A stretch of 64,000 nucleotides of DNA. Source: a virus (lineage: Duplodnaviria; Caudoviricetes). Of this stretch, positions 1 through 64,000 are shown piece by piece. The translations under genes were made by a program, and so were the position numbers. Within the stretch, counting starts at the first letter, position 1, and each line of letters opens with the position of its first letter. Location of the stretch: the IMG/VR virus record IMGVR_UViG_3300049740_002155, one strand, 5' to 3'. The notes under the pieces are model-generated. The model saw only the letters and a list, made by a program, of their open reading frames with translations, was not told the DNA's origin and did no database searches.

Positions 1-18
1 TCAGTAAATAATCATTTC

Positions 19-210
19 GTGGATAGCAGTTATTCCTCGGAAGTTGCAAACTTTCTAAATGAACTTATCGTGGAAATGAAAGGTGAAAGGTATTTTAATG
101 ATACCGATATTATGACCGATTATTTTCATTGTTCTCATTATCTTGACATTGAAGTCGGTAATTGGGAAAAACCTTACATCTATAACCAAGAACTTGCTCA
201 AGCAGCTTAA
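19..210 (+). CDS. hypothetical protein (GTG start, may extend beyond window)
   Basis: 63-aa ORF leading a tightly packed + strand run. Confidence 0.5.
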   Translation: MDSSYSSEVANFLNELIVEMKGERYFNDTDIMTDYFHCSHYLDIEVGNWEKPYIYNQELAQAA

Positions 211-212
211 TT

Positions 213-446
213 ATGAAACTAACAAACTACAACGGAACGAAGGCAAGTGAAAAGGCCTGCAATATTCAAGAAAGCATCGATTTGATTCAAAATGAAACGA
301 TACCAAGATTACAAGAAAATTACTTTGATTTATCAGATGAAGAAAATGCCGAACGCATTACTAACCTGAAGAACTATCTTAAAAGATTGCAATATGATCT
401 CGGTGTTGAACTCGGCAACAATGATGCGTTTGAGAATGTTGAATGA
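213..446 (+). CDS. hypothetical protein
   Basis: 77-aa ORF, 2 nt after previous stop. Confidence 0.6.
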   Translation: MKLTNYNGTKASEKACNIQESIDLIQNETIPRLQENYFDLSDEENAERITNLKNYLKRLQYDLGVELGNNDAFENVE

Positions 447-449
447 TAT

Positions 450-749
450 ATGACACTTTACGATTACAATGTAGATAAACATCAAGTTTTTGATGGCAAC
501 CCCAATCATCTGATCGTAGATGCTTCCAAGATAGGTCTTCCACCAGGATTCTTTCCAAATTGGATAAGTACAAATGATATTGGTAACGGAAATCCGTTTT
601 ATTCAGATAAAATAATTCGTGAAATGGTCGGACAAACCGATAGTGAAATTGAAGATATTATGTACGGAGATGTTGAGTGTTATGTGTACAAGCAAAATGG
701 TGGTGGCACCGTATTACTTGTAGTAAATGATTCATATAATGCAAAATAA
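450..749 (+). CDS. hypothetical protein
   Basis: 99-aa ORF, tight packing. Confidence 0.6.
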   Translation: MTLYDYNVDKHQVFDGNPNHLIVDASKIGLPPGFFPNWISTNDIGNGNPFYSDKIIREMVGQTDSEIEDIMYGDVECYVYKQNGGGTVLLVVNDSYNAK

Positions 750-814
750 TGCTTGACTTTTTATAATAATCGTGCTTTAGTAATAATTGAGAGTAAAAAA
801 GTAAAAAGAGAAAA
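744..814 (+). promoter_or_regulatory. repeated promoter/leader cassette (copy with degenerate -10)
   Basis: AAAATAATGC-TTGACT(753-758)-TTTTATAATAAT core shared with 1558, 18303, 19142; GAGAG leader box. Confidence 0.6.
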
Positions 815-1558
815 ATGAAATTAAACGAACTTAAAAATAAATTAAAAATCATCTCAAATAAGGGATATATACCAACACTTAGAAACGGAGATACCGGTGT
901 TGGGCAAACACTTGAGCAAGAACTTGGTCTAACTGAAAATAATGACTCTGCACCTGACTTGGGAAGTTTGGGGGAATTGAAGGCAAGACGATCAAAACAA
1001 AATTCCTTAATATCTCTTGTTTCAATTAATAGGTGCATTGAGTGGGGAAGTCGTTGTGGATGCCTATATGATGCAATTACATATTTTGGAAAGGAACGAA
1101 CAGACGGAGAATTTGTTTTAAATTTGTCGTTAAACTTTAAAGGTAAAACTGAAATTGTAAATGAAGAAAGAGGTTTTACTGCGAAAATTTGGGGAAATAA
1201 AATAAGATTCTATGGCACAGAACAATGGATGCCTTCTGGATACTTTTTTAGTATAAACTTGAATAAAGCATATGAATTGTACGAAAACAAGTTTGGAAGT
1301 GGGTTAATTTCAGTTAATGCGGATACAATGGGAACTGGAGTTCACGAAAAATTTCATTACAAAAGTGCATATAGATATTCTTTTTTGAATCTTCAAAGAC
1401 TTGTAAATTTAGTAAAAAGTGGAATAATTAAGATTGATTTCAGATGTCGTACACAAAATGGTGGGTACGGAGTTCGTGATCGTGGTACGGTGCTTAGAAT
1501 TCATCCAAAGGATGTCGGTTGCTTATACAATCACACAGAAAATCTATTATCTGCATAA
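815..1558 (+). CDS. MvaI/BcnI-family PD-(D/E)XK restriction endonuclease-like protein
   Basis: GDTGVGQTLEQELGLTENN..APDLGSLGELKARR signature typical of this family. Confidence 0.8.
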   Translation: MKLNELKNKLKIISNKGYIPTLRNGDTGVGQTLEQELGLTENNDSAPDLGSLGELKARRSKQNSLISLVSINRCIEWGSRCGCLYDAITYFGKERTDGEFVLNLSLNFKGKTEIVNEERGFTAKIWGNKIRFYGTEQWMPSGYFFSINLNKAYELYENKFGSGLISVNADTMGTGVHEKFHYKSAYRYSFLNLQRLVNLVKSGIIKIDFRCRTQNGGYGVRDRGTVLRIHPKDVGCLYNHTENLLSA

Positions 1559-1633
1559 AAATAATGCTTGACTTTTTATAATAATTGTGATAGATTACTT
1601 GTATTGAGAGTGAGAAAAGAGAAAGATACAAAA
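1558..1633 (+). promoter_or_regulatory. sigma70-type promoter plus leader cassette
   Basis: TTGACT 1568-1573, 17-nt spacer, TGn-TAGATT 1591-1596; near-identical to 19142-19208. Confidence 0.8.
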
Positions 1634-2017
1634 ATGACATTAGAATTAGTAGAAACACGCAAAGCATATGTAGTTCAATTTTGGGGAACGAGAACGCACG
1701 TTACGTCTCCTATTTTCAAAAGCAAGCAAGCAGCTGCCAACTATGTAGTTCGTGAAGGTTATAGGGTAGTTGAAGATTTGCAACTTCTTGAAATTGATTT
1801 GGACAAAATTGCCAATAATGAAAATGCGGTAGTTGAACAATATCACATTAGTACTGCAAAGGTGGGGTTTCGTATGAGTGAAGGTGATGATCCTCACGAA
1901 TTTGTGTTTGATTCAATCAGTCAATCAGAACGTCAAAAGAATTCATTGTATTCTTTGAATGCTTTTAGTATTCCTTTTCCGATGATTGCTAAGTTGACTA
2001 ATATGGCAAATGTCTAA
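1634..2017 (+). CDS. hypothetical protein
   Basis: ATG at 1634 after the cassette; the ORF-track start at 1568 lies inside the -35 box. Confidence 0.6.
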   Translation: MTLELVETRKAYVVQFWGTRTHVTSPIFKSKQAAANYVVREGYRVVEDLQLLEIDLDKIANNENAVVEQYHISTAKVGFRMSEGDDPHEFVFDSISQSERQKNSLYSLNAFSIPFPMIAKLTNMANV

Positions 2018-2348
2018 TAAACTTTACAAAGCAACTTTTAAGGGGGTTCGCAAAACTGCGAAATCTCCTTTATACAGCAACAAAAATGCTTGTTTACGGT
2101 GGGTCGCAAATAATTCACATCGTGTGCTTGGAGAGTTGTTGGTATACGAACTTGATTCAGAAAAAGCAAAACAATCCGATGATCGTGTAGCAAGTGCATA
2201 CGAGTACCCTGAATTAAGACTTGATGATGAACAAACAATTTCGGTGGAAAATTTATTGAATGCAGAAAAATTTGCATTTGATTTAGGAAGAACCACATTA
2301 TTCGGAATATTAAATTTAACGGAAGAACTTAAACTTGGTATTGCATAA
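2010..2348 (+). CDS. hypothetical protein
   Basis: 112-aa ORF overlapping previous stop. Confidence 0.6.
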   Translation: MSNKLYKATFKGVRKTAKSPLYSNKNACLRWVANNSHRVLGELLVYELDSEKAKQSDDRVASAYEYPELRLDDEQTISVENLLNAEKFAFDLGRTTLFGILNLTEELKLGIA

Positions 2349-2375
2349 TTAATCCAAATTTGTAATAATAATAAT

Positions 2376-2594
2376 ATGACAAAAGTAACAATGATTGATC
2401 CCGATGGAGGGTGGAAATATGGATTTCCAAAGATGCTACCAAACGAACTTGAAGGTAAGGATGTTACCGAGTGGTTAATTGAAAAAGGTTATCCACGTGA
2501 GGTGATTGACAAATGGAAACAATCTGACTTGGGATATCTACCTTGCAGATACTGGGAAACGGAGATAATAAATGTCACACAAGAAAACAAGTAA
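2376..2594 (+). CDS. hypothetical phage protein
   Basis: 72 aa, IDPDGGWKYGFPK motif resembling small phage proteins. Confidence 0.6.
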   Translation: MTKVTMIDPDGGWKYGFPKMLPNELEGKDVTEWLIEKGYPREVIDKWKQSDLGYLPCRYWETEIINVTQENK

Positions 2595-2737
2595 TTTTCA
2601 CCAGATACTTCGTAATTTGACAATCGAGTTGCGAAAAGGTGACCAAATTACGATTTGGCACGATGGATACCAAGTTTGTTTTAAAAATGTAGGAACAAGT
2701 AATTTCAAAATAGTAAAAAATCAAGATAATAATAAAA

Positions 2738-3907
2738 ATGCAAGCACTAACTACTCTATATAAATTAGATACAACTGGTAAAATCCGTCAATGGACGGTC
2801 AAGGTAAAGGACAATTCGTTTTGGACTGAGCAAGGTCAAGTGGATGGTAAGATTGTAATTAACAAACCTACAATTACCACTCCCAAGAACGAAGGACGTG
2901 CTAATGCTACAACTGCTGAAGAGCAAGCAATACTTGAAGCAAAAGCAAAATATACCAAGTATCTTGATAAAGGATATGTAGAAAACATTGAAGATGTTGA
3001 TAAAATCACTTTGTATAATCCTATGCTTGCTCAGAAGTTTGAAGACCGTGTAGATGGTCTTACGTTTCCTTTATACACTCAACCCAAGTTGGATGGAGTT
3101 CGTTGTATTGTGTATATGCAAGACGGAGAATTGGTTGCTAAGTCTCGTCAAGGAAAACCTATTGATACCGTTGTTCATATTCTTGAAGAATTGAAACCTT
3201 TTTTTGAGCAAAGTCCAAATGCAGTTCTTGATGGAGAACTTTACAATCACGATTACAAAAACGACTTTAACAAAATCATTTCACTTGTCCGCAAAATGAA
3301 ACCGGTTCGTAGTGAAAAAGATACCGACAAAACATTCGCAAAGAAACAGGAAAAGTTTGCGATTGCTCTTGAAGAAGCAAAATCTAAAATTCAGTATTGG
3401 ATTTATGATGTTCCACGTGATGGTAATCTAACAGAAGCAGATGATTTTCATCCTCGTTTTTTTGGTGTGGAAATTCCAGAAACGAATTCGTGTGTAATTG
3501 TTAAAACCGGCATCGTTAATGATATGAAACAACTTGATGAATATTATGACACTTACATGGAGTTTGGATACGAAGGACAAATCGTTCGTATAAATGGTCC
3601 TTACGAAAACAAACGAAGCAAACTTCTTCTTAAACGAAAAGACTTTACAGATGCTGAATATCTTGTTATTGGCATCAACGAAGGAGATGGTAATCGCACC
3701 GGTACTGCAAAAAACCTTGTATGCAAAGATGAAGCAACTGGTAAAATCTTTAATAGCAACATCAAGGGAACGCACGAATATCTTGCGGAAATTCTTGTGA
3801 ATAAAGAAAATTATATCGGAAAGCAAGCAACCATCAAGTTCTTTGAGTTAACACCTGATGGTATTCCACGTTTTCCTTATGCTATCGCATTTCGTGATTA
3901 CGAATAA
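2738..3907 (+). CDS. ATP-dependent DNA ligase (phage type)
   Basis: motif I QPKLDGVR, LDGELY, motif IV EGQIVR, motif V LLKRKD, C-terminal GIPRFP. Confidence 0.95.
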   Translation: MQALTTLYKLDTTGKIRQWTVKVKDNSFWTEQGQVDGKIVINKPTITTPKNEGRANATTAEEQAILEAKAKYTKYLDKGYVENIEDVDKITLYNPMLAQKFEDRVDGLTFPLYTQPKLDGVRCIVYMQDGELVAKSRQGKPIDTVVHILEELKPFFEQSPNAVLDGELYNHDYKNDFNKIISLVRKMKPVRSEKDTDKTFAKKQEKFAIALEEAKSKIQYWIYDVPRDGNLTEADDFHPRFFGVEIPETNSCVIVKTGIVNDMKQLDEYYDTYMEFGYEGQIVRINGPYENKRSKLLLKRKDFTDAEYLVIGINEGDGNRTGTAKNLVCKDEATGKIFNSNIKGTHEYLAEILVNKENYIGKQATIKFFELTPDGIPRFPYAIAFRDYE

Positions 3908-6498: not shown

Positions 6499-7026
6499 AT
6501 GAAGAATAAAAAAGAAATAGGATTTTTATATGGCAATCTACTTGATTTTCCATATGGAATAAATACGATAGCACATTGTTGCAATACTATGAATGTGATG
6601 GGTGCAGGTATTGCAAAATCAATTGCAGAAAGATACCCACAAGCAAAAGAAGCAGATGATGAATGTGCAAAAATTGGACAAAATGAATTAGGAGAAAGAA
6701 GTTTTGCGGAAGTTGAAATAGAAGATGCAAATACATTTCCACATCAGGAGTTCGGAAAAAATACACGCAAATGTAAAATCTATAATTTGTACACTCAGGA
6801 TGGTATAGGTTTTGGTCGTGAAGTAAATTATGAAGCATTGTATCGTAATCTGCATTTAATGCGAAATGCATTAAACAATGATCCTAATTGTGTTCTTGGT
6901 TTACCGTATCAAATGAGTAGTGGACTTGCAGGAGGAAGTTGGGAAATTGTAAATGCCATGATCAACACAATATTTGCATCTGATGCAACTTATTTTAAAA
7001 CTTATATAGTAAAATACGAACCATAA
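6499..7026 (+). CDS. macrodomain (ADP-ribose-processing) protein
   Basis: IAHCCN..NVMGAGIAKSI and GLPYQMSSGLAGGSW macrodomain motifs. Confidence 0.85.
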   Translation: MKNKKEIGFLYGNLLDFPYGINTIAHCCNTMNVMGAGIAKSIAERYPQAKEADDECAKIGQNELGERSFAEVEIEDANTFPHQEFGKNTRKCKIYNLYTQDGIGFGREVNYEALYRNLHLMRNALNNDPNCVLGLPYQMSSGLAGGSWEIVNAMINTIFASDATYFKTYIVKYEP

Positions 7027-7052
7027 GTTGATTTGCTAAATATATATATTTT

Positions 7053-7649
7053 ATGAAATTAAGTACACTTAAATCTATTGTTAAAGAGGAAGTTAAAAAT
7101 CTTCTTACAAGCAAACCAAAAATGTCAAAGCATCTTGAGTATCACATGGAAAATCACTCAACATTAGTTGAAGGGGTATTTCGTTATGGTTCTGACTCTT
7201 ATATTGATTTGTTTGAAGAAGCAAGAACTCTTCACGGAAAAAATAAAATTCAGTTAAGTGAGGTAGATCAGCATTTGATTGAGAATACAGATATTGGTAA
7301 ATGGGGTGAATATAATGAAATGCGTGTTCCATTGGATTGTCCGTTTCAAATTCATGAATCAGAATATCAAGGAAAAGATGTTGAACTCAACAAACCAAAA
7401 CGTGGTGGAAAAAAGAAGTTTTATGTTTATGTAAAAGACCCAAGTAGTGGAAACATCAAGAAAGTATCATTTGGTGATACCACGGGATTAAGTGTAAAGT
7501 TCAAAGATCCTGAAAAACGCAAAGCATTTGCTGATCGTCATAATTGTTCTACCAAGAAAGATAGAACCAAAGCAGGATATTGGTCTTGTAATCTTCCTCG
7601 TTATGCAAAGCAACTTGGAATGGGTGATAACCAAAATACCTATTGGTAA
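7053..7649 (+). CDS. two-module hypothetical protein with MKLSTLK..VKEE leader
   Basis: C-terminal KKFYVYVKD..IKKVSFGD..RHNC..KAGYWSC module recalled from large tailed phages. Confidence 0.6.
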   Translation: MKLSTLKSIVKEEVKNLLTSKPKMSKHLEYHMENHSTLVEGVFRYGSDSYIDLFEEARTLHGKNKIQLSEVDQHLIENTDIGKWGEYNEMRVPLDCPFQIHESEYQGKDVELNKPKRGGKKKFYVYVKDPSSGNIKKVSFGDTTGLSVKFKDPEKRKAFADRHNCSTKKDRTKAGYWSCNLPRYAKQLGMGDNQNTYW

Positions 7650-8174
7650 ATGAAACTTGGTAGTTTAGTTTCCGAAATACAATTAGAAAGCAAACTCGGT
7701 GATGAGTTTGCAGATATCGGTGACGAACTTGCACAAGAATTAAAAGACGAACTTGAAAACCAAGATGAATTAAACGAGGTGGTAATGAGCATCGTTGCTT
7801 ATGTAATGTTAAGCAACGGAATAATGGGACTTACAAGTAAACTCGTTAAAAGAATTAGCAAGAAATATAATTTTGGTAAGGGTCAAGTAGCCGCAGAGAA
7901 AATAGAAGCATTTGCAAAAGCAAACGATGATCGTTTTATGTATCCAATTCGTAAAGCAGTTTCATTGTTTACCAAAGATGAAAAGAAAATAAAAAAGGTC
8001 ACTCATATTCTATTTGCGATTGCTGTGCTAAGTATGGCATTAAACGCAGGTATGGAAGTATTTGATTTAATTAAAAATTCTGACTTTATGCAAAGTTCAG
8101 TTAACTCGTTGAGAACGGCTGTGGGTGGTACAAAAGTACACGCACTCGTTAGAACAATAGCAAAATTATTGTGA
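7650..8174 (+). CDS. hypothetical protein with hydrophobic segments
   Basis: 174 aa, MKLGSLVSEIQLE start. Confidence 0.55.
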   Translation: MKLGSLVSEIQLESKLGDEFADIGDELAQELKDELENQDELNEVVMSIVAYVMLSNGIMGLTSKLVKRISKKYNFGKGQVAAEKIEAFAKANDDRFMYPIRKAVSLFTKDEKKIKKVTHILFAIAVLSMALNAGMEVFDLIKNSDFMQSSVNSLRTAVGGTKVHALVRTIAKLL

Positions 8175-8434
8175 ACCCATACACTGAGCAAAAAATTTGG
8201 CACAACACTTATCTTCGCACTTTTTCTGCGGATACACCTGAAACCGATTTAATATGGCATCTTGATCGTGAGGACCGTGTTATAGAAGCAACTCATTATA
8301 CTGATTGGAAGTTTCAGTTTGATGATGAATTGCCGGTGTCTTTGAACAATTTAATTACTATCCCAAAAAATACATTCCATAGAATCATCAAAGGAACTGA
8401 TGATTGTACAATTAGAATTACGAAGTATGAATAA
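8171..8434 (+). CDS. cupin-like small protein
   Basis: WHLDREDR...ITIPKNTFHRIIKG pattern. Confidence 0.5.
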   Translation: MNPYTEQKIWHNTYLRTFSADTPETDLIWHLDREDRVIEATHYTDWKFQFDDELPVSLNNLITIPKNTFHRIIKGTDDCTIRITKYE

Positions 8435-9254
8435 AAAGTTAATTGAAATAAAAAACAAAATTACTGAGATGGTCAATAAAGGTGAACACGTAGATAAAGT
8501 AATTGAGAAAACAACTTTATATTTAAGCACGAAGGAAAAAATAGAACTAAAATTGCTATTTGAAGATGCCATGCGAACACATCGATTAAACGCAGAAAAT
8601 TGGACGCAAACAGATTTAATATTTCCATTAAGTGAGATATTGAAATCCAGATTGTTTGTATATCCAGAGTCAAGTGAACAATACTATGGATATGAACCAA
8701 GTCCACTTGAACAAAAAATACAAAGATGGAAAGAGTTGGAAAATGAAGAAGGTGGTTTGTACGCATTAATTTACAATGACATAGAAAAACGAAATAAAGC
8801 AATTTATGATTTAGCAGACAAAGTAGCAAGAAATAATCAATCCAATATTGACTTGGGAATTTTTATAAGTGAACTAGATAAGCATATTACAAGATACTCA
8901 AGTGATATAGATTTAATGTCAGGTTTACATCTTCGTTATAGTATTCCACAAAAAAATATATTAGTGTGGGATACTTTAACTTGTGCTGAAAATATAGGAG
9001 GAACAAATTCGCAAACTTTTGGTAGATACAAAATCTCTTGTAAGTTTCAATGGGAAATTCTCAATAGAACTCCTGAACCAGAGGTAGGTTATCTTCAAAT
9101 AGAAGAAAACGATGATGTCAAAAATTTAAGTGATTCGTTTAGTCCTATTTTTGTGGAAATGGTGGAAAACTTTTATGATCTTGATAAAAAATTAGATTTA
9201 CTATATAATATACTTAATGATATTAGACAAACAAACGATAGAGTCACAGACTGA
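8427..9254 (+). CDS. hypothetical protein
   Basis: 275-aa ORF overlapping both neighbours. Confidence 0.6.
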   Translation: MNKKLIEIKNKITEMVNKGEHVDKVIEKTTLYLSTKEKIELKLLFEDAMRTHRLNAENWTQTDLIFPLSEILKSRLFVYPESSEQYYGYEPSPLEQKIQRWKELENEEGGLYALIYNDIEKRNKAIYDLADKVARNNQSNIDLGIFISELDKHITRYSSDIDLMSGLHLRYSIPQKNILVWDTLTCAENIGGTNSQTFGRYKISCKFQWEILNRTPEPEVGYLQIEENDDVKNLSDSFSPIFVEMVENFYDLDKKLDLLYNILNDIRQTNDRVTD

Positions 9255-10227
9255 ATATTTTCTATCAGAATTTGAAAGATTACTTGTTTGTGAAATAGAA
9301 TCTTTAGACAAACGAGTTCAGTATCTTGTAGACTTCGTATTAAAAAATAAAGGAAAACGACTTAGACCTTTGTTGGTTCATAGTTGTTGTGATATTAAAA
9401 CCAAGCATACATTTGATGATGCAATAAAAGCAAGTATTATTGTTGAACTAATTCACATCGCAACATTGATTCACGATGATGTAATTGATAACGCAAATGT
9501 TCGTAGAAATCAAGCAACACTTCACAGCATCACTAAAGCAAATGAAGCAATTTTGGTAGGAGACATTTTATTTTCACACGCACTTGAAATGGCATCTTCG
9601 TTTCCTGATACAATGGTATGTCGTGAAGTAGCATCGGCAGTTAAGTTGACCTGCATGGGTGAAGTAAGTCAATCATTTGCTCAATGCAACTATGACACTA
9701 CACTTGAAGAATACGAAGATATTCTGATTGGTAAAACAGGTAAACTATTTGCGTGTGCGTGTCGGTTGGGAGCAAGATTAAGTAATCAAAAAATAAATGT
9801 CGTTGGAAGTGTAGAACGATTCGCAGAAAATCTCGGACTTGCTTATCAATTATACGATGACACAGTTGATGTATTTGGTTCAGAAAGTAATGCTCATAAA
9901 ACATTAAAGACCGATTTGAAAACAGGTAAAGTAACATTGCCTGTTATATTACTTTTGCAAAGTTGTTGCGAAGAAGAAAGAAAACCAATCATAGATTTAT
10001 TTCAAAATTATGATGTGTGCAATATAGGTGACTTTGACGATAATGCAAATAAACTTAATGAACTATTTGAAGCATATTCTATCAAACAAAAATGTTGCGA
10101 CATCATTGCGAACAAAATAAACGAAATCAAAAACTGTATTGCTAACATTAGTTATTTACCAATATCAGATAGAATGAAATCTATATCAGAAAATGTTTGC
10201 AATAAAATCCAAAACACTATAGTATAA
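9217..10227 (+). CDS. ispB: polyprenyl diphosphate synthase (IspB-like)
   Basis: GKRLRP, first Asp-rich LIHDDVID..RR, KTGKLF, QLYDD, DLKTGKVTLP. Confidence 0.9.
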   Translation: MILDKQTIESQTEYFLSEFERLLVCEIESLDKRVQYLVDFVLKNKGKRLRPLLVHSCCDIKTKHTFDDAIKASIIVELIHIATLIHDDVIDNANVRRNQATLHSITKANEAILVGDILFSHALEMASSFPDTMVCREVASAVKLTCMGEVSQSFAQCNYDTTLEEYEDILIGKTGKLFACACRLGARLSNQKINVVGSVERFAENLGLAYQLYDDTVDVFGSESNAHKTLKTDLKTGKVTLPVILLLQSCCEEERKPIIDLFQNYDVCNIGDFDDNANKLNELFEAYSIKQKCCDIIANKINEIKNCIANISYLPISDRMKSISENVCNKIQNTIV

Positions 10228-12294: not shown

Positions 12295-13346
12295 TGAAAA
12301 AATCGGATATTAAACAAGTGATAAGAACAGAACTTTCTGAACTTTTATCAGAAAACACAAACTCGTTAAATCAAGCATATGTGGTTTACACAAAAGCATT
12401 AAAGTCATTTGAACAAAATGCAAATGAATTAAAAGACAAAGTAATGCTCAAAATCTATAAAGAGTTTGATAAACTTCATTTGAAAATTACTCAACATCTT
12501 GATGCTAATTATGAAGGATCACTTGATGAATCGTATGCGGATACAATGCAAGCAAATTTACCAAGAGCATCATTTGCCGAACTTGATGAAGCAGGTGATG
12601 CGTTAAAGTCTTTGTTAAAGAATACGAGAAATGATCGTGAATTGCTTAAATTATACAAAGCACACATAAAATTGACTAAAGTATTTCAAAAGCATTTGGA
12701 CAAAAATTATCCTGATTGGGATAAACGAATGGAAGAAGATGTCAAAACTATTAATGTACGACATAAAACAACCAAAAAAAAGTTGGATATTCCGGATGAC
12801 CCAGATACCATTAAAAAGTATAAGAAGTTGGGGTATACATTGTGGATTGGTTCCCGAGGAAAAAATGAATCGGTGGATGAAAGAACGATTCAAGAACACG
12901 ATAAAGCAAAAGTGTTGCAAGCAATGCTGAAAGCAGGATCAAACAAAGCAGAAGCACACGCACTTCTTAAAAAGCATTATGCGTATGTTGATAAAAAGTA
13001 TCGTGATGTTCCTGCAAGCAAAAAAGCAGAAATCATTGTAACACTTGCGGGTACTACATCCGAAGCAAAAATAAACGAAAGATCAGAATCATACCGTGAA
13101 GCAGAATTAAAAAAGGTTGCACAATTTACTGATCGCAATCAACATTTGGAAGCAAGGCATTTTGTTGCAAGAAAAGGTGGTTATGAAAAACACCGTAAAG
13201 CATATCTTGCTTTAATTGATTTACAAGATGCGTTGGGTCACACACCAAGAGGAGCAGATCAGGTTCGTTCAGATTTAGACAAAGACCTTAAAAAGTATTT
13301 ATCAAAAGATGTTGATAATTGGGAAGAAGTTTGGGGAAATCTTTAA
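12294..13346 (+). CDS. multi-module protein with MKKSDIK leader
   Basis: 350 aa; short helical modules separated by LSE/LDE/KNE/INE. Confidence 0.7.
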   Translation: MKKSDIKQVIRTELSELLSENTNSLNQAYVVYTKALKSFEQNANELKDKVMLKIYKEFDKLHLKITQHLDANYEGSLDESYADTMQANLPRASFAELDEAGDALKSLLKNTRNDRELLKLYKAHIKLTKVFQKHLDKNYPDWDKRMEEDVKTINVRHKTTKKKLDIPDDPDTIKKYKKLGYTLWIGSRGKNESVDERTIQEHDKAKVLQAMLKAGSNKAEAHALLKKHYAYVDKKYRDVPASKKAEIIVTLAGTTSEAKINERSESYREAELKKVAQFTDRNQHLEARHFVARKGGYEKHRKAYLALIDLQDALGHTPRGADQVRSDLDKDLKKYLSKDVDNWEEVWGNL

Positions 13347-13693
13347 TGAAGAAATCAGAATTAAAGCAAATGATCCGTGAAATTCTTGAAGAAGATTTGC
13401 GTAACTGGTTTAAAAAGAAATGGGTCAACATTGGTAAAAAAGACAAAGATGGAAAACATCCTCCGTGTGGTACAAGTGGAGACAAACGAGGATATGCTAA
13501 ATGCGTTCCTCAAGCAACTGCCAACAAAATGACCGACAAAGAAAAAGAAAGTGCAACTCGCAGAAAACGGTCTGCCCAAAATGATGCAAATCGTGGTGGA
13601 AGAGAATCAGCAGGTCAAGGAAAGAAACCAATTAATGTCAGCACTTACACAAAACGAAGTGGAAAAAAAAGTGGAACAGGCAAAGGATCATGA
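13346..13693 (+). CDS. basic hypothetical protein with MKKSELK leader
   Basis: LRNWFKKKWV..GKHPPCG..YAKCVP module recalled from large tailed phages. Confidence 0.65.
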   Translation: MKKSELKQMIREILEEDLRNWFKKKWVNIGKKDKDGKHPPCGTSGDKRGYAKCVPQATANKMTDKEKESATRRKRSAQNDANRGGRESAGQGKKPINVSTYTKRSGKKSGTGKGS

Positions 13694-14028
13694 ACGAAGA
13701 GTGGAGCAACGACTACAAAAAGAAAATAGATTGTAGTAATCCCAAAGGATTTAGTCAAAAAGCACATTGTGCAGGTCGTAAAAAACGACAAGCAGGAAAA
13801 CAAACCAAATCAAAACCTGTGAAAGAATTTATGGAAAAGAAAACAATAGAAGAAAGATTACAATTATTTTTAGAAAAGAACGTTCCCACTTCTCCAAGCA
13901 AGTGGTCATATTGGGTAGGCCAAGCAAAAAAGAAATTTGATGTTTATCCTTCAGCCTACGCAAACGGATGGGCAGCCAAGATGTATAAAGATGCAGGCGG
14001 TAAGTGGAAAACTGAAAAGAAGAAGTGA
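13690..14028 (+). CDS. two-module basic hypothetical protein
   Basis: IDCSNPKGFSQKAHC and KKKFDVYPSAYANGW..YK..GGKW modules. Confidence 0.65.
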   Translation: MNEEWSNDYKKKIDCSNPKGFSQKAHCAGRKKRQAGKQTKSKPVKEFMEKKTIEERLQLFLEKNVPTSPSKWSYWVGQAKKKFDVYPSAYANGWAAKMYKDAGGKWKTEKKK

Positions 14029-14216
14029 AGAAACTTTGGCTCATTTGGGCAAGAACCGTTGATCATCGTGTCGGTAAAACTGATGATGACGAACCAGATA
14101 TTCCTATATTAACTCAGAAGCAAGCAAGAGTTAGTTTAATGCTTCGGACATTCATTATTTTGTTGAATGTTATCACTTGTTTCTTTATAATTGCTAATGC
14201 AATAAGACATTGGTAA
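14025..14216 (+). CDS. small membrane protein
   Basis: MKKLWLIWART...RTFIILLNVITCFFIIANAIRHW. Confidence 0.6.
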   Translation: MKKLWLIWARTVDHRVGKTDDDEPDIPILTQKQARVSLMLRTFIILLNVITCFFIIANAIRHW

Positions 14217-16436: not shown

Positions 16437-16520
16437 TCAAATACTATAAAGTATATAATAAGCACCTGCAACAATTAAACAGATTGTTATTAATAATGAA
16501 ATGATGCAATTTAAACTCAC
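16437..16520 (-). CDS. 27-aa hydrophobic micropeptide
   Basis: GTG start, MSLNCIISLLITICLIVAGAYYILYSI; stop abuts halogenase ATG. Confidence 0.5.
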   Translation of the reverse strand: MSLNCIISLLITICLIVAGAYYILYSI

Positions 16521-16528
16521 ATAAATAA

Positions 16529-54719: not shown

Positions 54720-56135
54720 TTAAAATGCAAAGAATTCTTTGCTTTTATTTTTTTCACTTGCTTGTGTAGGACTCTCTGCATCATTTACTCGTGTTTTGGC
54801 AATAATAGCATAATCCTTTTCTTTTTCAATTCCGATATATTTTCTATCAAGCAGTTTGGCCGCAATACAAGTTGTTCCACTTCCAACAAACGGATCAACA
54901 ACAACATCATTTTCACGACTTCCAAGTGTTACTAAATAACTCATAAGTTCAATAGGTTTGACAGTTGGATGAACGTTTTGTTTTTCCGTGACAAATCTAC
55001 CGGTAACATCGTGGTCGATTTTGCTATTGCTCATATCTTCTGCATTTCTTCTTCCTGGCATTGATGAACTTTTCTTTTTGGGAAGATGTTCAAGACCTTT
55101 GTTTTTTTCTGCTTTGCTTGCTTTTGCGACAATCATAAAAGGAAATGTCTTTTGAACACTTTTGGGTAATTTATGTATTTGTGATTTCCACCAAGAATCC
55201 AAATCGTAAAAACGAGAAAATGATCCTTCGTCTCCGTAAGTTCTTCCGGCAGGTTTGCCTGTACTTTCTTGCCAAATACCACCAGATGCACTTCCACTAT
55301 CTGTGTGTTTTCCTTTGCTTCGTTTTACTCCATCATTAAGTACATCATCTTGTACAATCAAATTGGCTGCAAATCTTCCGTCTGGTTTGTCGTAACCAAT
55401 TTGTTCCCCACTTGAATAAACTCCAGTATTTTCTCCGTGGAATCCACCACGATCATCACTTTGTTTATTTTGAGATTCGGATTGATCATCTTCGTTTTTG
55501 TAAGGAATTCTACAATCGTCCAACCAAGTAATTCCTTTGCCATTTTTCATTGCTTGTTCAATGGTGGTTTTTTCTGTGATTGGTTTCATTGCAACAAGTA
55601 CAACTTCTACCGCAGGTTTTGGTTGATAACCAACATAAGAACCTTCAAGTGCTTTTGCTTCATCGGATGCAGGTTCAGTTATATCGGGTGTTCTTCTTTC
55701 TTGCGTGTCACTATCCTTCCAATTGTTATATGTAGTTAGTTCTTGGTTGCCTTCAGGAGTTTTGTATTTTCCAATAACTTTTCTTTTTTTACCAAGTTGC
55801 TTGTCCACCGTCTTTCCTACATTATGTGCTTTTGGAAATCCTGTTGCGTATGTCCAATAAATCGGAGTGAATCCGATATTGAATCCTGCATCTTCTAAAC
55901 GAACCATCATACGACTTTGTACATCTGAACGAGGTGCTGACATAACGAAGCAGAATCCTCCTGGTTTCAAAACTCGTAGACACTCTTGCCAAATTTCTAA
56001 TGCAGGAACTGCTTTGTCCCAATCACGATTCATAAACGAATAACCATAAGGTGGGTCTGTGCAGATCAAGTCTACCGATTCATCCTCAAGTTTCTTGAGA
56101 ACTTTCAAACTATCTCCATTGATTATTTTATTCAT
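54720..56135 (-). CDS. N4/N6 DNA methyltransferase, beta class, with large insertion
   Basis: GDSL, TDPPY near N-terminus; HPTVKP and DPFVGSGT near C-terminus. Confidence 0.9.
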   Translation of the reverse strand: MNKIINGDSLKVLKKLEDESVDLICTDPPYGYSFMNRDWDKAVPALEIWQECLRVLKPGGFCFVMSAPRSDVQSRMMVRLEDAGFNIGFTPIYWTYATGFPKAHNVGKTVDKQLGKKRKVIGKYKTPEGNQELTTYNNWKDSDTQERRTPDITEPASDEAKALEGSYVGYQPKPAVEVVLVAMKPITEKTTIEQAMKNGKGITWLDDCRIPYKNEDDQSESQNKQSDDRGGFHGENTGVYSSGEQIGYDKPDGRFAANLIVQDDVLNDGVKRSKGKHTDSGSASGGIWQESTGKPAGRTYGDEGSFSRFYDLDSWWKSQIHKLPKSVQKTFPFMIVAKASKAEKNKGLEHLPKKKSSSMPGRRNAEDMSNSKIDHDVTGRFVTEKQNVHPTVKPIELMSYLVTLGSRENDVVVDPFVGSGTTCIAAKLLDRKYIGIEKEKDYAIIAKTRVNDAESPTQASEKNKSKEFFAF

Positions 56136-57024
56136 AACTAAAAAACTTATTTGAGTTAACACGAAGCTCGTCTTGCTCACAATAATCGGGTATTTCATAT
56201 TCACCTTTTTTGCGAAAAACCATAATATATTCGTGTATTTTACTTGTGTATCTTTTGCTTGCTACTTTCGCACATTGAACATAAGCAAACGGACTAAGAT
56301 TCTTCATAATAATTGTATCGTGGTGAATCATTCCTTCGTTTACAAATGCAGTAATCAAGTCCGAATGAAAACTACGAAGACCACTACCTGTCATATCTCT
56401 CCAATCTGAAACAACCCATACGCAAAATGCTCCTGGTTTCAAAACACGATTTATATTTTTACCACACTTTTGAATTTGAGTCATAAAGTCTTCGTATGTT
56501 TCACATTCACTTAATTGATTTTTTGCAGTTTCGTATTTTTCAAGATTGTGATACGGAGGACAAGTAAATACCAAATCAGCAGTTTCATTTCGTGTATATA
56601 ACATCTCTGTTCCATCACAATTAAAAAGTTTGGGTGATACCTTGAACTTTTTAAAATGTTTCATACAACGATCATATGTTTGCTTTGATACTTCGTAACC
56701 TTGATAGTTACGACCAAGTTTACTTGCAACCATAGCACGTGTAGCACGACCTGAAAATGGGTCTACGATTACACTTCCACGCATACTCCAATAACGAAGA
56801 ATTTGCTCTGCTAATCCTGCGTGAAACTCACTGAATCTAAGACCAGGAAGATTCTCTGCATCTTTACTTCTTTTTGTTTCACGAATTCCATCATCAAGAT
56901 ATGCTTCCGGCCATTGTTCACGGTGATCACGACTTGGTTCTAATACACTCAAAGGCAACCAACCGAATTGTTCGTCAATTCTACAATCTTTTCTGATTGG
57001 AAGTATTTGATTATAGTTTGCCAT
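56128..57024 (-). CDS. N4/N6 DNA methyltransferase
   Basis: VDPFSGRAT (motif I) then FTCPPY (motif IV). Confidence 0.85.
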   Translation of the reverse strand: MANYNQILPIRKDCRIDEQFGWLPLSVLEPSRDHREQWPEAYLDDGIRETKRSKDAENLPGLRFSEFHAGLAEQILRYWSMRGSVIVDPFSGRATRAMVASKLGRNYQGYEVSKQTYDRCMKHFKKFKVSPKLFNCDGTEMLYTRNETADLVFTCPPYHNLEKYETAKNQLSECETYEDFMTQIQKCGKNINRVLKPGAFCVWVVSDWRDMTGSGLRSFHSDLITAFVNEGMIHHDTIIMKNLSPFAYVQCAKVASKRYTSKIHEYIMVFRKKGEYEIPDYCEQDELRVNSNKFFSYE

Positions 57025-59531
57025 TAGAAAGCAAAAAACTTTTGAGCAGTTGCAAGATTCTCACTTGCAAAGTCCCAACTAAGTGCATCGTAAAAGTCAC
57101 GCAACTTTCCTTCAAGTTCTCGTTCAAACAATTTATCTTTATCTGCATACTTCTCAATAAACTCCATAAGTTGTGGTGGGTCTTCATAACCACGAAACGC
57201 AAGTGCATCTAAACCAAGTTCATTGTTCTTCAAATAAATCCACTTAATTTTTTCACCATTACGAATAGGTTCACTTTGTATTTTAAACTTTTTGAGAAAC
57301 TGATTGTGAATGATACTTGATTTAACGTGTGCGGGTGTACTTTTTGCACACTCACCCATAACTGCACCTTTATCCATCATCTTTACATACTTGGATATAT
57401 TTTTAACTGCACTCGTCTTTGCAATATCATCAACCGACTCGTTCTTAACTTGCTTTTTGAGTGTAACAATCTTTTCATCAATTTCTTCTTTCGGTACATC
57501 CTTCAAAATATCTTTGAGGATTTCCGTCATAAACTTACGAAACCGAGTTGGAAAACTACTACGCACAACATCAAGACCTTTAACTTCCAATTCGTCACAA
57601 GTAACACCGTTGTTGTTGATAATCCATTGTGCATATCGTTTCTTTGCCAACCACATACTTGCTTTGGCAATCACTTCTTGTTTAATGTCATAACGATGCT
57701 CTTCAATGTTGAAGAAACGTTTTGCCATAACATCATAACTTTTATTGATGAAGTTTTGTACATCACCCGCAACTTCAAGAATTGCAGTTGCCATTTCGTC
57801 ATCGTTCTTTACATCAACGTGAGGCATCGTTTTTTCTACGATAGGCAATGCTGAAAAGAAAACCGAGTCGGTATCAATGTATATACAATGATCTTCTGTA
57901 TCACCAAGTGTTTTATTGTAATAGTGATTCGCAATCTTGCGACTAAACTTAATCACGGACACACCTGTGGTCGTAACTGCTTCTGCATTGTCCACATCAT
58001 AAAACCGAAAAATAGGCAAACCAAGAACACCATACAACGAATTAAGAAGAATCTTTTGCACGTGCTGACGTCTTTTATAGAACACATACTTTGCATCGTC
58101 ACCTGAGTTACCATACTCTTTCATTTTGTTCTTGAACTCAACACGTTGGTTGAACCATTGATCAAGAATCGCAGGAATAAGTCCGACCTTATTCTTGGTA
58201 TACATAACTCCGTTGCTACTGATAGAAAGATTGTTATCTTTTAGAAATGCCTTGAACTCATCTGCTGAATATGTTTCTCCACGAAATCCAACTTCGGTTT
58301 GTTCTCCGTCACAAAACTTCTCGGGACTCCAATTATCAACAACACCCACTTTGGTTTCTGGTGAAATATTCGTGGACATAATAATAGATGGATACAGAGA
58401 AGTTAAATCCAAGTCAAACACCCACTTGTATTTGCCAGGTGTCGGTGCAGCCACATATGCTCCACTAAACTTCTTGGATTCGTCACCTTTAATTTCATTG
58501 AATCGTTCACGACCATTTGGGTCTTTATTTGGTGCGACAAGATTGTGTCTGCGAAGATAAGTAAGCAATGCACCTTCAAGATAACGAGACGAAAATAAAA
58601 TGTCTTCATACGGAACGTGTCCAACGTGACAAATGCTACGAGTCAATTCAATGAGTTCCATCTTTCTATCAATCTCAACAACAATCTTTACGTCGTTCAA
58701 ATTGTATTCAATGAACTTCTCAATATCTTGTGAAAACAAATCATCAAGATTACCTTCGTATTCAACTTTACCAATACCAACTTCTTTACGACCAATTGCA
58801 TCCAAACGATAACTTGGTTCAACACTAAATGTAAAGTTCTTGTATAACGCAAGATAATCCAAGCAACTAACACCTGCAATAACAATACGTTTCTTGAACT
58901 GATGATAATATGCGTGTCCAATAGGACTCAAACGATTTGCATCACCTTGCCCTAAAACTCTTGCGAGTCTACGATACAAATAAGGAACGTCAAAGTAATC
59001 AATGTTCCAACCGGTCAATATTGTCGGACTAATCTCTTGATAAAAATCAAGAAAGTGTTCAAGCATTGCTCGTTCTGTATCATAAGAATAAACCGAAACT
59101 TCATCATTAGAATAGTCGGTGATTTTATCTTCCTTGTCTAAAACAAGAACCACATAGTTATTAGAACAACTATCGTGATACGCAATGGAAGTAATAGGAT
59201 TGTTTGCTCGTTCTGTGTCAGGCAACTCTCCTTCCATACTAACCTCAATATCGAAGTTTAATACACAATGACCTGTACTTGGTTCATCGTCATCTTCGTA
59301 CAAATCAATTAAATTACGTGTTTCAATCGGAACATCTGATTCAAACAAACCTTCGTCTTCATAACGATACTTAGTTACCTTTTCTAACTTGTCACCATAC
59401 ATACTACGATACATTCCGTTCGGAGACTTTCTGTATGCGTATGGTTTGTTTTTGTAGGTTACTAAACCTTGTTTATCATCCCACAAATAAATTGTGTTGT
59501 TCTTTTTGCTTACGAATATATTTTGGTACAT
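57024..59531 (-). CDS. family B DNA polymerase (gp43-like)
   Basis: exo FDIE, GWNIDYFD, YNLND; pol DLTSLYPS, KILLNSLYG, YIDTDS; TTGACT-17-TACGAT 8 nt before ATG. Confidence 0.97.
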   Translation of the reverse strand: MYQNIFVSKKNNTIYLWDDKQGLVTYKNKPYAYRKSPNGMYRSMYGDKLEKVTKYRYEDEGLFESDVPIETRNLIDLYEDDDEPSTGHCVLNFDIEVSMEGELPDTERANNPITSIAYHDSCSNNYVVLVLDKEDKITDYSNDEVSVYSYDTERAMLEHFLDFYQEISPTILTGWNIDYFDVPYLYRRLARVLGQGDANRLSPIGHAYYHQFKKRIVIAGVSCLDYLALYKNFTFSVEPSYRLDAIGRKEVGIGKVEYEGNLDDLFSQDIEKFIEYNLNDVKIVVEIDRKMELIELTRSICHVGHVPYEDILFSSRYLEGALLTYLRRHNLVAPNKDPNGRERFNEIKGDESKKFSGAYVAAPTPGKYKWVFDLDLTSLYPSIIMSTNISPETKVGVVDNWSPEKFCDGEQTEVGFRGETYSADEFKAFLKDNNLSISSNGVMYTKNKVGLIPAILDQWFNQRVEFKNKMKEYGNSGDDAKYVFYKRRQHVQKILLNSLYGVLGLPIFRFYDVDNAEAVTTTGVSVIKFSRKIANHYYNKTLGDTEDHCIYIDTDSVFFSALPIVEKTMPHVDVKNDDEMATAILEVAGDVQNFINKSYDVMAKRFFNIEEHRYDIKQEVIAKASMWLAKKRYAQWIINNNGVTCDELEVKGLDVVRSSFPTRFRKFMTEILKDILKDVPKEEIDEKIVTLKKQVKNESVDDIAKTSAVKNISKYVKMMDKGAVMGECAKSTPAHVKSSIIHNQFLKKFKIQSEPIRNGEKIKWIYLKNNELGLDALAFRGYEDPPQLMEFIEKYADKDKLFERELEGKLRDFYDALSWDFASENLATAQKFFAF

Positions 59532-61469: not shown

Positions 61470-61474
61470 CTGTA

Positions 61475-61765
61475 TTACTTTTTTATTTCACAAATTTTTT
61501 CATGCAACAATTTTACATCATCGCAAGTCATCCCAAATATTGCTTCAACCCCTTCGACCATTTTTGTAAAGTTTATGAGTGTACCAATTTCTCTTGGGTC
61601 ACCTTCGGATTCTGTTATTTTGTATTTTAGGTCCAGTGTATCATCCTGAACTTCTTCAAGTTTACACAATGTCATATGCTCGTACAACGCAACAAAGTCA
61701 TCAACGGAGCAAGTCGTTAAAAAGTCAAGAGACTCTTGTTCAATTCTATTTTCTTCGGAATCCAT
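61475..61765 (-). CDS. acidic hypothetical protein
   Basis: 96-aa ORF. Confidence 0.55.
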   Translation of the reverse strand: MDSEENRIEQESLDFLTTCSVDDFVALYEHMTLCKLEEVQDDTLDLKYKITESEGDPREIGTLINFTKMVEGVEAIFGMTCDDVKLLHEKICEIKK

Positions 61766-61823
61766 TTTTATTTTCTAGTTAAGGTTATGTATTTATATAA
61801 ATATATATTATAATCAACAAATG

Positions 61824-63050
61824 TCAATTCTTTTTCCAAATCCAAATTGGTTCTGCGAATGCAACATCTTTATTTTCTTCGGTAATTTCTTTGAGGTCTT
61901 CCGAGAAATATTCACTCTTGGCATTACCTGCTCCACCTGAATTAAATCGTTTCGTCATTTCCATTCCAACGCAACCAAGATATTCAAGACCTTGTGATTT
62001 AATAAAGTCATTCATTGGATTTGTGATTTCAACATAGTCGTTGATAGGAGCATTGAATACATCTGCAATGTTGATGGCAAGAATACCATTCTTCTTTATT
62101 GCCGGAATTATCTTACCGAGGGTGGTGTGAAGAAACTTCTCGTTCCAATCATCTATCTTTTTATATCGTACCCAAGATTGCGTATCATCTTCTGAATACT
62201 TTTCTGTATTAAAATAAGGTGGACTTGTAAACACCGTATCAAAGTAATTTTCATATTGGGAGTAATCTACGTCTTCGGCAGGACTTTCTATTAAGTCTGC
62301 TTTTCTATTCTGTTCAAAAAAGGTAGAATACTTTTCATAGAACTGAATTTGCTTTTGGTAATTAGGATGGTTAAGTGTATTGGGATCAATTCCAACATAA
62401 TGCTCTGTGGTTTCACCTGTATAAAATCCCGCTAATCTATCTCCCCAACCTGCACTAAAGTCTAATACGTTCTTGCTTTGAAAGTGATCATAAAATGCTT
62501 TTGCTACTGCTGGTTTGAATTGTGATGCGACATACTTACGAAGGGTCGTAGCAACACGAAGAGTATTAACATCAACACGATTAAGAACTTTATCCAATGT
62601 CCAATAAGCACGAACAATTGTTTTGATTCCTTTCACCGTCTGCCAAGTTTTCCAACCACTTGGTGTTCTTGTCCAGTCTACTTTCCAACGAGTTTCTACA
62701 TGAAATGGATTAGAAGCATTGTTACCCGAGTTGTTTCTTTTCAATAGAAACTGAGAATCTTTGTAGTTAAGGTGGTAGTTGCTTTTTCTTTCATTGCGAG
62801 GAAACCACTTTTTTTCTACAAGCACATCATTGTGCTTTATTCCTTTTAACTTGTTCAAACTATCAAGAGTTTGCTTATCCGTAATCTCGGGTAAAGGAGC
62901 AGGATATGTGTGTAATACTTTAGCAAGTTCTTCTACAACATCTTCTTTATCATACTTTTGCATGATATCTTTCCATTCATCTTCTTCAATTAGAAGGTAT
63001 GGTTTCATGTTGTAGAACTTTTTAAAATGTTCTTTTAAGTCAACACACAT
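61824..63050 (-). CDS. N4/N6 DNA methyltransferase-like protein
   Basis: VLDFSAGWGDRLAG (motif I), FTSPPYFNTEKY (motif IV). Confidence 0.85.
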   Translation of the reverse strand: MCVDLKEHFKKFYNMKPYLLIEEDEWKDIMQKYDKEDVVEELAKVLHTYPAPLPEITDKQTLDSLNKLKGIKHNDVLVEKKWFPRNERKSNYHLNYKDSQFLLKRNNSGNNASNPFHVETRWKVDWTRTPSGWKTWQTVKGIKTIVRAYWTLDKVLNRVDVNTLRVATTLRKYVASQFKPAVAKAFYDHFQSKNVLDFSAGWGDRLAGFYTGETTEHYVGIDPNTLNHPNYQKQIQFYEKYSTFFEQNRKADLIESPAEDVDYSQYENYFDTVFTSPPYFNTEKYSEDDTQSWVRYKKIDDWNEKFLHTTLGKIIPAIKKNGILAINIADVFNAPINDYVEITNPMNDFIKSQGLEYLGCVGMEMTKRFNSGGAGNAKSEYFSEDLKEITEENKDVAFAEPIWIWKKN

Positions 63051-63872
63051 TTAGTCAGAGTTTTCAATTTTATTTTGAGTAGACGTGACATCTGACTCCT
63101 TCAGTATTGATTCGGTTATCTCTTCAGGTTCGTCTTGGTGATCTGTGATTATAGTTTCGGAAAAACTTCCACTTGAATTTTTATCAGTACCCTGTTGTGC
63201 TTTTTTTAATTTATTTTCGTTGTGTGCTTTTAGTTTCTGTGTAATATAGTCATCAACTTCATCGTTGTTGCCACCTGGCATACCATTTACACTTTCTCCA
63301 TTGGCTGCTCTGATTATCGCTTGTTGAGATAAACCATCAGAGGTTTGTGCTCGTTTATTCATTTCAGGATACTGATCACCATATCGTGTTCTATCTACTA
63401 CTAAATCCTGTGGGGTGTTTTGTTTGGGTTTTATGTCGTTGGTTTTGTTTTTTGAATCTACTATCTGTACATTAGTTTGCTCTACAACTAAATTTGAGAT
63501 TGGATTCTTTTCAACTGACTTACTTTCTTCATTGATTGGTTCACTCTTTTTACTCAAGAGATCAGCAATTTCTTCTTTGGATACTTCGGATTTAGTAGAA
63601 TCGTTTGATTTAGTTATTATGTCATTTGAAGTAACTGATATAGTATCAAACTCAGAACCATCTTTTATTCTTTCTTTTGTTGACTGCTCAAGTTTTTTTT
63701 GAAACATTGACAAAAGTCCAGATGTATCGTTGAAACTTTTTTCATACTTTTCTTTGTCTGAGTTATGCTGTTGTTGTGCGTGTTTCATTGCATCTTGCTC
63801 AACGGAACTCGTATGCTCATTTTTATTTTGAGCAACTTTTTCAAAGTTTTGATCTAGGTTTTCAAATGACAT
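63051..63872 (-). CDS. acidic low-complexity hypothetical protein
   Basis: 273 aa; ATATTTAT-N5-ATG. Confidence 0.55.
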   Translation of the reverse strand: MSFENLDQNFEKVAQNKNEHTSSVEQDAMKHAQQQHNSDKEKYEKSFNDTSGLLSMFQKKLEQSTKERIKDGSEFDTISVTSNDIITKSNDSTKSEVSKEEIADLLSKKSEPINEESKSVEKNPISNLVVEQTNVQIVDSKNKTNDIKPKQNTPQDLVVDRTRYGDQYPEMNKRAQTSDGLSQQAIIRAANGESVNGMPGGNNDEVDDYITQKLKAHNENKLKKAQQGTDKNSSGSFSETIITDHQDEPEEITESILKESDVTSTQNKIENSD

Positions 63873-63911
63873 GGTATATAAATATGTATATACAAATCAA
63901 ATAATTTAGAA

Positions 63912-64000
63912 TTAATCAATTTTTTCAAATAGCAAAGTTGGTCTTCCAATTTCACCTTCTACTTTACCTGCTTGTTTTATTGTTCCGTTTTCCAATGCTT
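63912..64000 (-). CDS. partial CDS (3' end only)
   Basis: ...ALENGTIKQAGKVEGEIGRPTLLFEKID-stop. Confidence 0.5.
   Translation of the reverse strand, partial: ALENGTIKQAGKVEGEIGRPTLLFEKID

Follow-up and report, generated by a model that had tools for sequence, protein, structure and literature searches.

Introduction

CviJI-type enzymes recognise RGCY, AluI recognises AGCT and HaeIII recognises GGCC, and viruses can themselves carry readers of this kind, R.CviJI and the frequent cutters of the chloroviruses being virus-borne enzymes that cut very often at a GC core with degenerate flanks. Here we analyse a stretch of 64,000 nucleotides (hereafter the window) of a Caudoviricetes virus, IMG/VR record IMGVR_UViG_3300049740_002155, from which one class of GC-core words has been largely purged, namely VGCB, that is, GC in which neither strand has a T immediately before the G. 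A gp43-type polymerase, rIIA and rIIB genes and a clamp-loader subunit place the window in the genome of a marine T4-like jumbo phage.

The avoidance of restriction sites by lytic double-stranded DNA phages has been surveyed (Rusinov et al. 2018, PMC6286503), and the window shares the main traits of such cases: the phage is non-temperate, short words are strongly low under selection, and many palindromes are avoided. Its main avoided class differs in that a GC core with 'not T' and 'not A' flanks corresponds to no known site; some members of the class are non-palindromic tetramers, the strength of avoidance depends on the flank, and one T is enough to rescue a site fully. Pandoravirus genomes have lost AGCT (Poirot et al. 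2019, bioRxiv 10.1101/712018), which is likewise a lineage-specific purge of a GC-core tetramer from a large viral genome, with the selective agent unidentified; there, however, a single palindrome is missing from an amoeba virus, whereas here a whole flank-defined class is missing from a bacteriophage.

Two further groups of enzymes are relevant. BcnI and MvaI are described as monomeric enzymes that cleave each strand in an event of its own (PMC3089477, PMC3203586, PMC1874612). Phage C5-methyltransferases that act on GC[C/T/G] and not on GCA, and that are coupled to TET enzymes, have been reported on contigs partly from marine viromes (Burke et al. 2021, PMC8256090). They divide GC by A versus not-A after the C, as our pattern does, and VGCB is exactly the set that they would mark on both strands; in the window, by contrast, these sites are removed rather than modified, and no C5-methyltransferase match was found in five related records.

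Results

VGCB sites are depleted throughout the window

The window contains 1,686 GC dinucleotides, of which 925 are TGCN, 659 VGCA and only 102 VGCB, bearing out a preliminary description of the sequence, according to which GC is almost always preceded by T or followed by A across the whole stretch. The survivors comprise 26 GGCT, 24 AGCC, 19 AGCT, 19 GGCC, 4 CGCC, 4 CGCT, 3 AGCG, 2 GGCG and 1 CGCG. A Markov-1 (dinucleotide) model predicts 614 VGCB sites, an observed/expected ratio (O/E) of 0.17 rather than near 1, and a neutral-flank model scaled on the non-V classes predicts 1,275, a survival of 0.080. Total GC is near normal (O/E 0.94). Counted on both strands, TGCA, TGCB and VGCA occur 642, 1,263 and 1,263 times, where base-composition flanks predict 631, 1,268 and 1,268. 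These three classes therefore stand at composition proportions, revealing a clean filter that has removed about 92% of VGCB sites. Markov-2 (trinucleotide-conditioned) ratios, such as 1.50 for GGCC and 0.17 for AGCT, make the effect look smaller than it is, since the depletion is already contained in the trinucleotides.

The codon-preserving shuffles that the preliminary description had proposed give the same picture. In 92 crude coding sequences we found 74 VGCB sites, as against 409 ± 13 under synonymous-codon permutation, with no shuffle below 368, and 454 ± 15 under codon-order permutation (z about −25 in each case). Every codon phase is depleted (O/E 0.27, 0.10 and 0.10), and the bias is symmetric between strands. 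Local counts made earlier by eye were reproduced on recounting: three sites in 1–3900, all of them RGCY; four among 64 GC dinucleotides (previously roughly 60) in the DnaK (Hsp70) gene (45348–47279, plus strand), which had served as a test gene; and one in 34330–38484. The reported rule for alanine codons also holds, GCA making up 403 of 455 (89%) after A, C or G and 212 of 503 (42%) after T.

Although the depletion spans the whole window, one stretch is richer in sites: 28530–34325 (28.5–34.3 kb), at about 30% G+C and made up of small open reading frames (ORFs) and non-coding repeats, holds 33 of the 102 survivors, several of them in ATAGCT contexts. Within it, the non-coding region 28600–29500 carries direct and inverted (TAATAG)n-type repeats with arms 500–800 bases apart, and several of its surviving AGCT sites stand in ATAGCT contexts; this region is possibly an origin or a regulatory region.

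The only relative fetched in full, G001 (170 kb, 84% complete, DNA 80–94% identical to the window), shows the same filter across its 170 kb, with 327 VGCB among 3,940 GC dinucleotides. In its segments at 125–130, 160–165 and 90–95 kb (L086, L088 and L090) the VGCB fraction rises locally to 0.17–0.20, and these islands may be non-coding DNA or recent acquisitions.

Depletion is graded by flank and half-site costs multiply

The tetramers of the class are unequally depleted. Survival in the window rises from 0.012 for CGCG through 0.022 for AGCG/CGCT, 0.037 for CGCC/GGCG, 0.060 for AGCT and 0.157 for AGCC/GGCT to 0.236 for GGCC, with ranges of 0.006–0.012 for CGCG, 0.04–0.11 for CGCC/GGCG, 0.16–0.20 for AGCC and 0.24–0.49 for GGCC, so that the flanks rank C > A > G in depletion. 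Flank factors taken from the palindromes AGCT, CGCG and GGCC in the window (a = 0.25, c = 0.11, g = 0.49) predict the mixed classes as simple products: 0.027 against 0.022 observed for AGCG, 0.119 against 0.157 for AGCC and 0.054 against 0.037 for CGCC. The corresponding values in G001 are 0.018 against 0.017 for AGCG and 0.170 against 0.203 for AGCC. One flanking T, on whichever side, is enough for full rescue; both flanks must therefore be permissive, and their costs multiply.

These gradings decide what became of the restriction reading in the preliminary description, which had named CviJI-, AluI- and HaeIII-type targets. Selection against a restriction-type activity that reads sequence is supported in kind, by the purifying selection, the compensatory changes of flank and the wide avoidance of palindromes described below, but the named enzymes do not fit: GGCC is the most spared word of the class, so the pattern is not avoidance of CviJI, AluI or HaeIII. 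Avoidance of RGCY as such would deplete AGCT, AGCC/GGCT and GGCC alike and spare the rest; in the window the RGCY classes are unequally depleted and the strongest depletion falls on AGCG/CGCT and CGCG, which are not RGCY words, and this also sets the pattern apart from R.CviJI. A nickase model, in which nearby sites on opposite strands would be avoided, was discarded, the spacing profiles of GCA and TGC being normal beyond 4 bases.

The filter is maintained by selection

We compared the window with G001 in an alignment of 88.5% identity. At third codon positions where the GC is kept, the protecting flank (T in TGCB, A in VGCA) has changed at 8.9% of positions and the free flank at 27.7%, about three times as often. 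Changes of class between the two genomes run 53 times through TGCA and 21 times as double swaps between TGCB and VGCA, with 11 single steps into or out of VGCB. The flank changes are thus compensatory evolution along permitted states, and the filter is kept up by ongoing selection, not by mutation.

The preliminary description had also offered mutational decay, in which methylated cytosines at VGCB sites would be lost by deamination, and this account we consider very unlikely. Two observations are in its favour: 15 of 17 core-only differences between VGCB sites and their counterparts in G001 are transitions, and there is a small excess of VGTB (O/E 1.12 under the fixed-codon null, with VACB at 1.04). 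Ordinary divergence is transition-dominated anyway, however, and the 4–12% excess of the products VGTB and VACB is of the size that the fixed-codon null itself yields, while Markov ratios scatter around 1. Decay is moreover at odds with the near-normal total of GC and with the alanine GCN codons, in which C-to-T is not a silent change and where sites have been cleared through the flanking base, by choosing GCA or a preceding codon ending in T, and not through the core. The conservation and compensatory swapping of protecting flanks speak against it as well. A methylase reading GCB strand by strand would erode TGCB and VGCA too, yet both stand at neutral proportions. Finally, the C5-methyltransferase profile PF00145 was unmatched in the records G001–G005 (G001 being 84% complete), in a search that detected its positive controls; a parallel search of the five related records for TET/JBP (PF12851) also gave no match, but is uninformative, as its TET control was detected nowhere.

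The filter recurs in an independent lineage and is absent from candidate host DNA

Relatives were collected with the family B (T4 gp43-like) DNA polymerase encoded at 57024–59531 on the minus strand, whose best cultured match is that of Microcystis phage Mel-JY01 (47% identity). In IMG/VR it has a close set of relatives, 92–100% identical, and a large family at about 54%. Within this polymerase-sampled family the VGCB index extends from about 0.14 to 0.96, and the first principal axis of the ten GC-core classes in 74 non-redundant loci sets AGCT, AGCG, AGCC and CGCC against TGCA and CGCA. One lineage (L044/L049), with a polymerase 53% identical to the window's, carries a graded filter like that of the window, with a VGCB survival of 0.090 and neutral non-V classes. 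The complete phage G005, whose polymerase shares 91% identity with that of this lineage, is undepleted, its survival of 0.56 representing the family baseline. This contrast between close relatives shows that the filter arose at least twice, and quickly. Other members go different ways: the L070 group has an RGCY-type purge (AGCT 0.03, AGCC 0.14, GGCC 0.22), and further lineages show the opposite bias, with TGCA and GCA low.

The bacterial DnaK nearest to that of the window comes from a metagenome-assembled genome of the Puniceicoccaceae (68% identity), followed by other Verrucomicrobiota, and on this protein similarity the host group is probably marine Verrucomicrobiota. In the loci around the closest bacterial DnaK genes, VGCB is at expectation, so the phage is not copying a host style.

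These comparisons bear on the idea that there is no reader at the DNA level at all, and that the pattern is a side effect of codon usage, of amino-acid content or of a copied host oligonucleotide style. AT-rich relatives do have somewhat low counts of GC-rich tetramers, as the baseline of G005 illustrates. But the z of −25 persists with codon usage and protein sequence held, the bias is strand-symmetric and seen in each codon phase, a six-fold difference separates phages whose polymerases are 91% identical, and the loci of the candidate host group are undepleted. This explanation is already close to refuted, and we give it hardly any credence.

Many other words are avoided in the same clade

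The GC filter stands among many losses. In the window and G001, RCATGY is absent, ACATGT occurs 0 times against 73 expected and AAGCTT twice against 49, while ACTAGT, AGATCT, GATATC, CTATAG, CTGCAG, GTGCAC, GGATCC and the BssSI-like asymmetric CACGAG are near zero or strongly low. Among tetramers, TCGA (0.21), ACGT (0.41) and CATG (0.44) are low, as are CTAG, GATC and GTAC, and dozens of 6-bp palindromes in the window's clade are at or near zero or strongly low. G005 avoids other words (GTSAC, GASTC, TGWCA and AGWCT). Such broad word loss is a known signature of restriction avoidance, of which the GC filter is the most extreme member here.

It also gives some footing to a composite origin, in which avoidance of several ordinary GC-core restriction enzymes (AGCT, GCGC, CGCG, RGCY and others) would add up to the appearance of VGCB. 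Dozens of separate words are avoided in the clade, and partial versions exist elsewhere, both in the L070 group described above and in the contigs L295–L307 described below, where RGCY is near 0 while AGCG is normal. Nevertheless, the most depleted mixed classes are non-palindromic (AGCG/CGCT at about 0.02, CGCC/GGCG at 0.04–0.11), and palindromic four-cutters cannot remove such mixed tetramers, nor can six-cutters empty a tetramer. That products of the palindromes predict the mixed classes, that the non-V classes lie at exactly neutral proportions and that identical grading recurs in an independent lineage likewise count against a sum of unrelated avoidances, which we hold to be improbable.

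The window encodes an MvaI/BcnI-family endonuclease

The ORF at 815–1558 (plus strand) matches the MvaI/BcnI restriction endonuclease family over its full length (Pfam PF15515, E 4.9e-23; 82.8 bits against a cut-off of 25; profile positions 2–227 of 227), and its product matches the R.BcnI and R.MvaI chains at 1e-11 and 3e-8. D48, E54 and K56 of the PD...E-x-K motif are invariant in the family alignment. The window therefore encodes a full-length family member with its catalytic motif, and strand-by-strand cutting, as described for BcnI and MvaI, would yield a pattern in which both flanks are needed and costs multiply. In other respects it differs from BcnI (CCSGG) and MvaI (CCWGG): the enzyme is distant from both, neither word is eliminated (26 CCWGG and 6 CCSGG sites in the window), and no methyltransferase gene adjoins it, the neighbouring ORFs having no Pfam match. 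The protein is a candidate for a phage-borne reader of one purged word.

Copies 87–93% identical to this protein occur in other metagenomes. A single-protein search of IMG/VR gave no match, and an alignment-based search of IMG/VR gave only relatives at 25–32% identity. We compared 13 viral contigs with such distant homologues: one, with an MvaI-close enzyme, has 0 CCWGG sites, and seven lack CCSGG and have almost no RGCY. These word-poor contigs with enzymes of their own indicate that phages can purge words that their enzymes probably read. The seven, IMG/VR jumbo-phage contigs of up to 284 kb (L295, L296, L298–L300, L302 and L307), carry an MvaI/BcnI-type endonuclease gene, have an RGCY O/E of 0.00–0.05 and contain no CCSGG, and in L297 and L305 CCWGG is almost absent. 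In L300, the only one of the seven that we annotated, an N6/N4 methyltransferase gene follows the endonuclease gene in an operon.

A GC-core nuclease as the proposed agent of selection

The best explanation that we can offer, with about an even chance of being right, is that VGCB is avoided under selection by a restriction-type nuclease that recognises a GC core with a non-T 5′ flank on both strands. Such an endonuclease would read the GC core and would need a permissive flank on each strand, with C best, then A, G only weakly and T never; a single T on one side, corresponding to an A on the other strand, would render the site harmless. It could cut each strand in a separate event, as reported for monomeric MvaI/BcnI-type enzymes, or it could be a symmetric dimer with additive half-site energies. 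There would be a single agent, which could come from the host (probably one of the marine Verrucomicrobiota), from rival phages or from the phage's own lone MvaI/BcnI-family gene.

A number of points weigh against this explanation. We know of no enzyme of VGCB-like specificity, and a literature search for one turned up none. The product rule is poor for CGCC in G001 (0.053 predicted, 0.114 observed) and for AGCG in L049, where counts are small. Furthermore, 33 of 54 aligned VGCB sites are conserved in G001, which together with the roughly 8% survival indicates that the sites are costly rather than lethal. The three methylase-fold genes of the clade could mean that DNA modification is part of the story. 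Lastly, GCNGC follows a rule of its own, which the simple flank model does not predict. Each GCNGC holds exactly one weak VGCB (32 of 32 in the window, 126 of 127 in G001), in the forms GCAGCC, GCAGCT and [A/G]GCCGCA, while none that would conform to the flank rule is present: GCAGCA/TGCTGC occurs 0 times against about 87 expected, and TGCNGCA 0 times against 16–80.

About 30 of the 102 surviving VGCB sites in the window belong to GCNGC. L049 and G005 are without the rule, and so it is a separate constraint, confined to the window's clade. It may consist of two further avoided words that leave nothing but the VGCB forms to be used, it may be a methylation shield, a methylated VGCB protecting against a GCNGC cutter, or it may reflect a GCA-specific modification combined with a modification-dependent cutter. 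Among the methylation-pattern models, which we worked through by hand, only the shield and the GCA-modification-plus-cutter versions survived.

Methylase-fold genes and DNA modification

Just downstream of the polymerase gene, 54720–56204 (minus strand) encodes a predicted beta-class DNA amino-methyltransferase with a DPPY motif and a long insertion (PF01555, E 7e-32; PHROG DNA methyltransferase), and 61824–63050 (minus strand) encodes a methyltransferase-like protein with an SPPY motif. The latter is the shorter paralogue of a larger SPPY enzyme that lies just beyond the window end, in a hypermodification cassette with a 2-oxoglutarate (2OG) hydroxylase and a pyridoxal phosphate (PLP) enzyme. 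The depleted L049 has, relative to the syntenic G005, four or five extra DNA methyltransferase genes and a PLP enzyme, together with a weak HincII-like ORF and an uncharacterised protein of 496 residues, which recurs at 82% identity in the L070 group. These additions lie at 159–2073, 6855–9237, 12571–14061 and 15770–17125, and include three SPPY genes in tandem before the polymerase.

Such genes raise the alternative that a base of TGC/GCA is modified and protects the neighbouring GC, so that only the unprotectable VGCB sites would be purged. Besides the three amino-methyltransferase-fold genes of the clade, one of them in the cassette, and the extra genes that separate L049 from the undepleted G005, this alternative can point to the phage cytosine methyltransferases of PMC8256090, which make the split between A and not-A a real enzyme specificity, and to the GCNGC rule, which can be fitted by adding a modification-dependent cutter. 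Several words that contain TGC or GCA (CTGCAG, GTGCAC, ATGCAT, GCATGC, TGCGCA and GCAGCA) are nonetheless strongly avoided, so this context gives no general protection. Nor is VGCB lower in contigs that carry the cassette methylase (median index 0.46, against 0.52 in the polymerase-sampled set), some lineages even having the opposite bias with TGCA and GCA low, and we discarded that enzyme as driver of the filter. A nuclease attacking bare GC would still be required, and we regard this modification-linked alternative as unlikely.

A TpG-specific thymine modification, prompted by PMC13229309, was also considered and rejected: an apparent enrichment of C before AGC among the surviving sites was traced to GCAGC[C/T] and hence belongs to the GCNGC rule, and TG-containing words such as ACATGT are absent.

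Other genes of the window

The window has a G+C content of 33.6% and is about 88% coding. Besides DnaK it encodes a dUTPase-like protein, DnaJ, ClpP, two glutamate dehydrogenases and other host-like genes. Host-like metabolic genes lie at 9217–10227, 15018–16436, 20273–21001, 25068–27250 and 41215–43960, with products that include a polyprenyl synthetase, a tryptophan-halogenase-like flavoenzyme, a member of the 6-phosphogluconolactonase/glucosamine-isomerase family, dihydrofolate reductase, a PSCyt1 cytochrome protein with leucine-rich repeats and the two glutamate dehydrogenases, which are in tandem. An ATP-dependent DNA ligase (2738–3907, plus strand) is encoded near the endonuclease gene and could reseal single-strand nicks; we mention it as context only. 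The ORF at 63051–63872, translationally coupled to the SPPY methylase-like gene, encodes a charged, low-complexity protein; it was rejected as a nuclease, having no domain and matches to close relatives only. No tRNA genes were found in the window, and a search of phage records with the window DNA gave no match.

Discussion

The avoidance of short words can be read as a fossil record of the nucleases that a phage meets. The specificity recorded here, GC with 'not T' and 'not A' flanks graded C > A > G, has arisen independently in two lineages of marine jumbo phages that are abundant and uncultured. A bolder reading, which we advance only tentatively and think rather less probable than the action of a nuclease on this clade, is that an undescribed class of GC-core nucleases is widespread at sea and repeatedly reshapes jumbo-phage genomes. 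Its members would read GC plus non-A on each strand and make a double-strand break only at VGCB; they are perhaps lone, phage-borne MvaI/BcnI-type enzymes directed against host DNA or rivals. The GC[C/T/G] methyltransferases known from marine phages would in that case be a chemical answer to this threat, and the GCNGC rule would come from an additional layer in the form of a methylation shield or of another cutter. Should such an agent exist, it would be a new frequent-cutting nuclease, with possible use as a tool, and it would account for the odd GC[C/T/G] specificity of methyltransferases in some marine phages.

The endonuclease gene shows that a restriction endonuclease can be carried by a T4-like phage with no methylase gene next to it, and phages may conceivably purge their genomes as a guard against weapons of their own or of their rivals. 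Taken together, the clean filter, the product rule and the flank swaps make these marine jumbo phages an unusually quantitative natural case of selection on short DNA words.

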